Below are positions 35,951-36,176 of a stretch of DNA of 64,000 nt, in pieces (position 1 is the first letter of the stretch; each line of letters opens with the position of its first letter). Where the stretch lies: the NCBI GenBank assembly GCA_037379345.1, contig CM074525.1, positions 24,793,840-24,857,839 on the forward strand, written 5' to 3'. This DNA is from Perna viridis (taxonomy: Eukaryota). The notes under the pieces were generated by a model. The model worked only from the letters and a program-made list of their open reading frames with translations. It was not told the DNA's origin and did not search any database. The position numbers and the translations under genes were made by a program.

Positions 35951-36176
35951 GTGTGCTAGTGATTATTATCACGGGGATTGGATATGCGCCGAATGCAGGG
36001 GGAGTCGAAGACTCTACTACTGCCGCTGACTAGCCTACTTGTAGGTGAAAAAGAAAGCCGAGTGCGTAAGTCTTTCTTGTCAGTACAAAGCCTCTACCAG
36101 TCTAAGACCTCTACAGTGCCTCCTCGCGACAGCACACGGTAACTAGGGTCTAGTATCCTAGGCTAAACTGTAGAGG
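35951..36176 (+). ncRNA. HDV-like self-cleaving ribozyme at the RTE 5' end
   Basis: P1 GTGTGCT(35951-57)/AGCACAC(36131-37); P2 CCTCTACAGT(36108-17)/ACTGTAGAGG(36167-76); P3 GCC/GAC; L3 TCCTCGC; P1.1 GG; P4 CTAGGG/TCCTAG; J4/2 G-C-T-A-A. Confidence 0.85.

Follow-up and report, generated by a model that had tools for sequence, protein, structure and literature searches.

The 64-kb stretch of DNA analysed here (the window) contains an RTE-type non-LTR retrotransposon with two RNA features that probably act on its transcript: an HDV-like fold at the 5' end that would cut the element out before G35951, and an 11-bp helix between the two ends that would loop the RNA. Covarying complementarity between the 5' and 3' ends of RTE elements is established at the level of sequence. 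The element and its insertion site comprise the following features:

35951..38408, + strand: RTE-type non-LTR retrotransposon, a dead, internally deleted copy (full length about 3.6 kb)
35938..35950, + strand: 5' target-site duplication of 13 bp (14 with G35951), identical to 38409-38421
38409..38421, + strand: 3' target-site duplication, matching 35938-35950
38395..38409, + strand: (TAAG)n microsatellite tail, read from the sequence
33891..39745, no strand assigned: degenerate 30-bp satellite, interrupted by the RTE element
36543..36547, + strand: deletion junction, copy-specific, with 5-nt microhomology and about 1,150 bp lost, including the endonuclease
36661..38397, + strand: reverse-transcriptase remnant (Pfam RVT_1, DUF6451) with a frameshift near 37370 and in-frame stops

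The window copy cannot transpose on its own. Its endonuclease has been lost, whereas other copies of the same family (family A) retain it, and the sister family P0001 has an intact APE-RT frame of 1023 amino acids with the Exo_endo_phos, RVT_1 and DUF6451 domains. The architecture seen in P0001 is that of RTE elements, a single ORF in which an APE endonuclease is followed by the reverse transcriptase, without ORF1, and the 3' ends are likewise RTE-like, being short, with a (TAAG)n tail and target duplications of 11-18 bp. The identification of the element as RTE-type in the first-pass annotation is thus borne out by the APE-RT architecture, the microsatellite tail and the target duplication. 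The clade label is a provisional one, drawn from this architecture and from C-terminal motifs which we take to be RTE-type.

A search of the element's own genome gave 132 candidates, 40 of which were scored, yielding 29 family-A copies (the window copy included) and 11 copies of sister families. Relatives were also sought among viral contigs and none were found. RTE-type reverse-transcriptase sequence occurs inside bacterial genome records (L204-L220), where it is likely to be contamination with host DNA. Two family-B copies, L054 and L055 (G000:C7), lie 7.3 kb apart with a common upstream flank and an identical endonuclease region, and are likely to be a local duplication. Elsewhere in the window there are six further satellite arrays with units of 31-75 bp (7408-8820, 19870-21090, 23294-24754, 29410-31145, 52980-54258 and 60134-61406) and, at 9295-11079 on the minus strand, a 594-codon open frame rich in Gly, Gln and Ser with Cys-rich modules, likely one large exon.

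The HDV-like fold occupies the first bases of the element:

35951..35957, + strand: P1 5' strand, pairing with 36131-36137; predicted cleavage directly 5' of G35951
35958..36107, + strand: J1/2 domain of 150 nt, with a hairpin at 35959-35972, P1.2 at 35975-35981/36097-36103 and an inner multibranch
36105..36117, + strand: P2 5' strand, 10 bp plus a 3-bp extension
36118..36130, + strand: P3 and L3; P3 is GCC/GAC with C-A at 36119/36129, L3 is TCCTCGC
36131..36139, + strand: P1 3' strand and the GG of P1.1
36143..36161, + strand: P4 hairpin of 7 bp, strands 36143-49/36155-61
36162..36166, + strand: J4/2 GCTAA with C36163, its catalytic role inferred from HDV ribozymes
36167..36180, + strand: P2 3' strand and extension

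All the helices of the double pseudoknot described in the first-pass annotation are present where it had placed them. P1 starts at G35951 and forms 7 of 7 Watson-Crick pairs (35951-57/36131-37), P2 has 10 bp (36108-17/36167-76) with three further pairs possible at 36105-07/36178-80, P1.1 consists of C36122-G36139 and C36123-G36138, and the L3 TCCTCGC, P4 and C36163 were all found as reported. The J1/2 segment, given as about 150 nt, measures exactly 150 nt, and P1.2 within it forms 7 of 7 pairs. P3 forms two of its three pairs, the middle one being C-A. Run on both strands of the window, an HDV descriptor matched only at 35951, with one match in 40 dinucleotide-matched random windows; it was composed after the target was known and is too strict for family B and others, the cores of which it missed and which were read by eye and by alignment. 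The Rfam search of the window and of the core alone returned no HDV-family match, and we infer that the 150-nt insert may defeat the Rfam models. Nested minimum-energy folds recovered P2 along with competing pairings in the core, and were set aside because a pseudoknot is impossible in such folds.

The pairings are conserved in relatives, being kept through compensatory changes. In an alignment of 11 sequences (two from family A and nine from three sister families) 92.3% of the cells are paired and 18 of 66 pairs change on both sides, a covariation score reached by 0 of 500 shuffles, while slid controls pair at 32-48%; these figures are not p-values, since the sequences are related and the J1/2 structure was drawn from the same alignment. 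P1 is paired in 96% of cells, and the compensatory changes, which are family-specific, fall in P1, P1.2, P2 (two pairs) and P4 (two pairs). The closing helix P1.2 (35975-81/36097-103) has four compensatory pairs and the other J1/2 helices covary as well, so that the J1/2 'insert' is, judging from the alignment, a conserved folded domain. In P1.1 one C-G pair is present in 11/11 aligned sequences and the second in 3/11, leaving one pair only in 8/11, and C36163 is C in 27 of the 29 family-A copies. In more distant families the HDV core, as read by eye, has another P1, which is once more the start of the element, and an additional hairpin ahead of P3; families E-G, also by eye, have a P1 that differs and in which the first G is paired with U or C. 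Nine loci (L089, L092, L093, L094, L096, L097, L099, L100 and L116) were recorded as having a further hairpin between P3 and the 5' strand of P2, the same nine being listed with a G-U pair at the cut site. On the 3' side of the ribozyme, 36178-36420 shows 76-82% identity with sister families and may be another structured element.

The first-pass annotation held the 5' end to be defined to the nucleotide. This stands for the family, as 21 of the 28 other family-A copies begin at the same G (of the other seven, two begin at +2 and +4 respectively and five are truncated, at 50-160), a count that is not a full-length rate because the search query was the 5' end itself. It does not stand for the window copy alone: G35951 also follows the 3' duplicate, the duplication reads as 13 or 14 bp, and the boundary is therefore ambiguous by one base. 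The flanks of the family-A copies are unrelated. Of 20 both-ended copies (24 were examined), 8 have a duplication that ends directly before G+1, 10 have one that runs into the first 1-5 bases and 2 have 1-4 additional bases between duplication and element; an extra G at the junction is possible in at most 1 of the 20. Extra G at about 33% of SVA insertions is ascribed to the cap in passages of PMC3287187. The near-absence of extra G here hints at an uncapped end, by comparison with an element that uses another enzyme. Three copies (L003, L004 and L011) share a G>A change at 35955, which makes an A-C mismatch in P1, and their 5' ends are still exact; a perfect ribozyme may thus not be needed for exact ends.

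The C-A in the middle of P3 had been explained as a possible post-insertion mutation. The family consensus at 36129, which the first-pass annotation had proposed to check, is A: the base is A in 28 of 29 family-A copies and deleted in one, and contigs of four other samples show no letter but A. The A must therefore have been present already in the element that gave rise to the family-A copies, and an origin after insertion is ruled out. The middle pair is C-G in 8/11 aligned sequences, so the proposed A36129G 'repair' would restore the sister-family state and would not mend the window copy. P3 of HDV and CPEB3 is highly sensitive to single changes (passages of PMC9901934), the jewel wasp R2 ribozyme cleaves with a P3 mismatch (PMC3774820, in part), and a stable J1/2 and extended P2 strongly raise the rates of HDV-like ribozymes (extracts of PMC4908430). 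The fixed mismatch provides a natural test of whether peripheral structure can rescue a weak core.

That sensitivity of P3 is what lends some weight to the view of the family ribozyme as a near-dead relic, with C-A fixed in the master copy and the exact ends produced by an internal promoter at +1. The exact ends of the P1-mismatch sub-lineage L003/L004/L011 are also consistent with it, as are read-through contigs uncut at copy L021 and an R2 family that is apparently active although its ribozyme hardly cleaves in vitro (passages of PMC3774820). Nevertheless all the other helices are intact, with compensatory changes in P1, P1.2, P2 and P4, insertion junctions have almost no extra G, and the jewel wasp R2 ribozyme is a case of cleavage despite a P3 mismatch; we consider a relic unlikely. 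The reading we prefer is that of a ribozyme that probably still cuts. Cutting just before G35951, the predicted ribozyme would free the element RNA from longer host transcripts and leave an uncapped 5'-OH RNA, from which full-length cDNA would end at G+1. The folded J1/2 and the long P2 may offset the weak P3, giving a family ribozyme that would be slower yet working.

The second feature joins the end of the 5' region to the last codons:

36483..36492, + strand: conserved RTTACRGAAA motif that closes the 5' region, read in the frame V-T-E-T
36493..36503, + strand: 5' arm of the long-range helix, 11/11 complementary to 38356-38366
38356..38366, + strand: 3' arm of the long-range helix, within the final codons (W-R-x-x-V-x-A-L)
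38367..38391, + strand: predicted 3' terminal stem-loop with a CCCT/AGGG base, abutting the 3' arm; read by eye

In most families that have retained the region, the RTTACRGAAA motif precedes the endonuclease by 116-178 nt (by 42 nt in one copy). The register of the helix can be defined across families, with the base following the motif at one limit and, at the other, base 1 of the Ala codon in W-x-x-x-V-x-A-L, and it recurs in other families with different arm sequences. For 11 families of the element's own genome, represented by one copy each, cognate arms form 8.4 of 11 pairs against 6.0 for non-cognate arms and 2.0-4.6 for slid registers, and the cognate sum was reached by 2 of 200,000 permutations. 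Near-fixation at two positions out of 11 lifts the non-cognate baseline to about 6. At position 2, each of the four Watson-Crick pairs is found in one family or another, and on the sense strand there are recurrent G-U pairs. Pairing is poor in three of the 11 families (3, 4 and 6 pairs); the loci that fail at the fixed register are L113 (3/11), L099 (4/11, with a one-base indel) and L118 and L141 (6/11), and L159 and L162 are without both helix anchors.

The helix was also sought blindly, by scanning each 3' arm along its own element. Thirty-two loci were given, five of them without an anchor and some sharing a family; the best partner fell in a segment covering 3.5% of the element for 13/27 loci and missed it for 14/27, and in 11 of the 13 matching loci this partner starts where the motif ends. 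A further 97 loci came from other collections, of which 12 contained both ends; ten of these were tested, eight with both anchors present, the rule for the 5' anchor having been drawn up after the sequences were viewed. Seven of these foreign loci pair at 8-11 of 11 positions and one at 6. Over the first 9 positions their pairing was reached by 2 of 40,320 exact permutations, in a set where two loci are close relatives.

In six short, internally deleted copies from three families (L004, L007, L010, L259, L221 and L222), the window copy not being one of them, the junction lies in or at the helix. In three family-A copies, about 590 bp long, the sequence passes directly from element position 546-550 into the final 45 bases, and the two breakpoints, 36493-36503 and 38356-38366, are reverse complements of each other. 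L259 retains the two arms, separated by a 4-nt loop, and has lost precisely the 3 kb that they enclose. In L221 (family B) and L222 (family F) the junction lies within the copy's own helix, which differs between the two. Fifteen deletions of at least 40 bp were counted in 31 family-A copies, four with both ends in or at the helix and 11 elsewhere (3/14 without L259, which was found by its pattern); the chance of both ends lying at the helix was estimated by hand as about 1 in 10,000 or less per deletion. The family-A short copies look independent, since their junctions differ, the target duplication is a separate one in each of L004, L007, L010 and L259, and two variants that L004 has in common with the full-length L003 and L011 are missing from L007 and L010. 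An amplified short family made of 5' and 3' ends was rejected, the six being single copies with different junctions. L223 and 12 of the 18 matches of the junction-pattern search were discarded as chance, reversed-pattern controls having given 4 and 16 matches. A 59-base contig from another sample (run X1) joins 36521 to the middle of the 3' arm in the two-part form, covering 36492-36521 of the window, and the family-B copy L249 breaks off after the first three bases of the 5' arm and runs on into unrelated sequence.

If the helix forms in RNA, it could stack on the 3' stem-loop, where reverse transcription would start. Because the 3' arm is coding, translating ribosomes would have to unwind the helix, and in this way the RNA could alternate between serving as message and as template. 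The reverse transcriptase might sometimes jump across the helix and so produce two-part copies of about 600 nt. Whether the conserved 5'-3' helix marks full-length ribozyme-released RTE RNA, switches it between translation and reverse transcription and explains bipartite LINEs and SINEs is in our judgement evenly balanced.

The same arms could in principle be a DNA-level feature or a by-product of codons, the short copies then being post-insertion deletions between inverted repeats. The two nearly fixed positions, the non-cognate baseline of about 6 and the location of both arms within the open frame are in line with this. However, the four Watson-Crick pairs at position 2 and the recurrent sense-strand G-U pairs argue against it, arms of no more than 9-11 bp lie 3 kb from each other, and L004, L007, L010 and L259 differ in duplication and junction, which makes this origin highly improbable.

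The sequence runs examined for transcription at the locus are contigs, and none is recorded as RNA. Coverage of 35850-35936 is zero in these runs and their contigs gave no splice joint spanning the element within 31400-51000, blanks that are not evidence of silence. As no joint spans it, the placement of the element inside an intron of that interval was rejected. A spliced gene begins near 44021 on the plus strand (44021-50849), with GT-AG joints 44214/47394 and 47486/50849 in three runs. Very high contig depth at about 32050-33360, 34826-35320 and 39900-41860 corresponds to high-copy short repeats, one of them inside the 30-bp satellite. At L021 (G000:C6:12266491-12266825, minus strand) the contig crossing the 5' end carries the L021 flank in 4/4 runs, which are probably RNA and could be of either strand; this copy has 9-nt and 5-nt deletions in J1/2 and may therefore escape cleavage. 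Cutting by the window copy of RNA transcribed across the satellite, as the first-pass annotation suggested, is unsupported and not refuted; that an intact ribozyme was damaged at 36129 after insertion and that the window copy cuts such read-through RNA is scarcely credible, for although the mismatch is in the sequence and the whole core is kept, 28 of 29 copies and the contigs of four samples have the same A and the locus gave no transcript evidence.

HDV-like ribozymes at the 5' ends of RTE, R2, R4, R1, LOA and Ingi/L1Tc elements have been published (passages of PMC3774820, PMC5786205 and PMC6765202). The present fold resembles them in its nested double pseudoknot, in a P1 that begins with the first base of the element, in the catalytic-position C of J4/2 and in having conserved sequence downstream and variable sequence upstream, but its family carries C-A in the middle of P3 and its activity is a prediction. 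Another parallel is drz-Agam-2-1 (PMC4908430, in part), in which P1.2 likewise closes a J1/2 that is large and structured and P2 is extended to 12-13 bp; what sets the present fold apart is that its J1/2 forms a 150-nt multibranch, with one more hairpin beside P1, and that Rfam gave no match. Taken by itself, the ribozyme adds a further member to a known class.

Bipartite non-autonomous derivatives of RTE elements are already in the literature (PMC5786205). Few LINE groups make bipartite derivatives, the cause being stated as unknown in a passage of Kojima 2018 (PMC5786205), and for R2 SIDEs template jumps have been proposed (PMC3414825, in part). The short copies described here are similar in combining the 5' and 3' ends, with a ribozyme head, a tail and a target duplication, whereas their junctions lie in a covarying 5'-3' helix and they are six single copies. 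A functional end helix would turn the rarity of bipartite derivatives among LINE clades (PMC5786205) into a testable question and would have a bearing on RTE gene-writing templates with cognate 5' and 3' UTRs (passages of PMC13708176). A literature search outside subscription papers and patents, including a word search of text portions of PMC5786205 and PMC13708176, found no 5'-3' helix in RTE RNA, and the motif was not found in the portion of the Kojima 2018 supplement text (PMC5786205) searched. Should the end helix prove functional, it would add to RTE RNAs a cis-element that has so far gone unreported.

Helices that cyclise the RNA by 5'-3' pairing occur in plus-strand RNA viruses whose RNA is uncapped or non-polyadenylated. 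The RNA considered here is that of a host retrotransposon and has no sequence in common with these viruses, so that the parallel is one of analogy only; in both, a short long-range duplex would join the ends of an RNA that is at once message and template.
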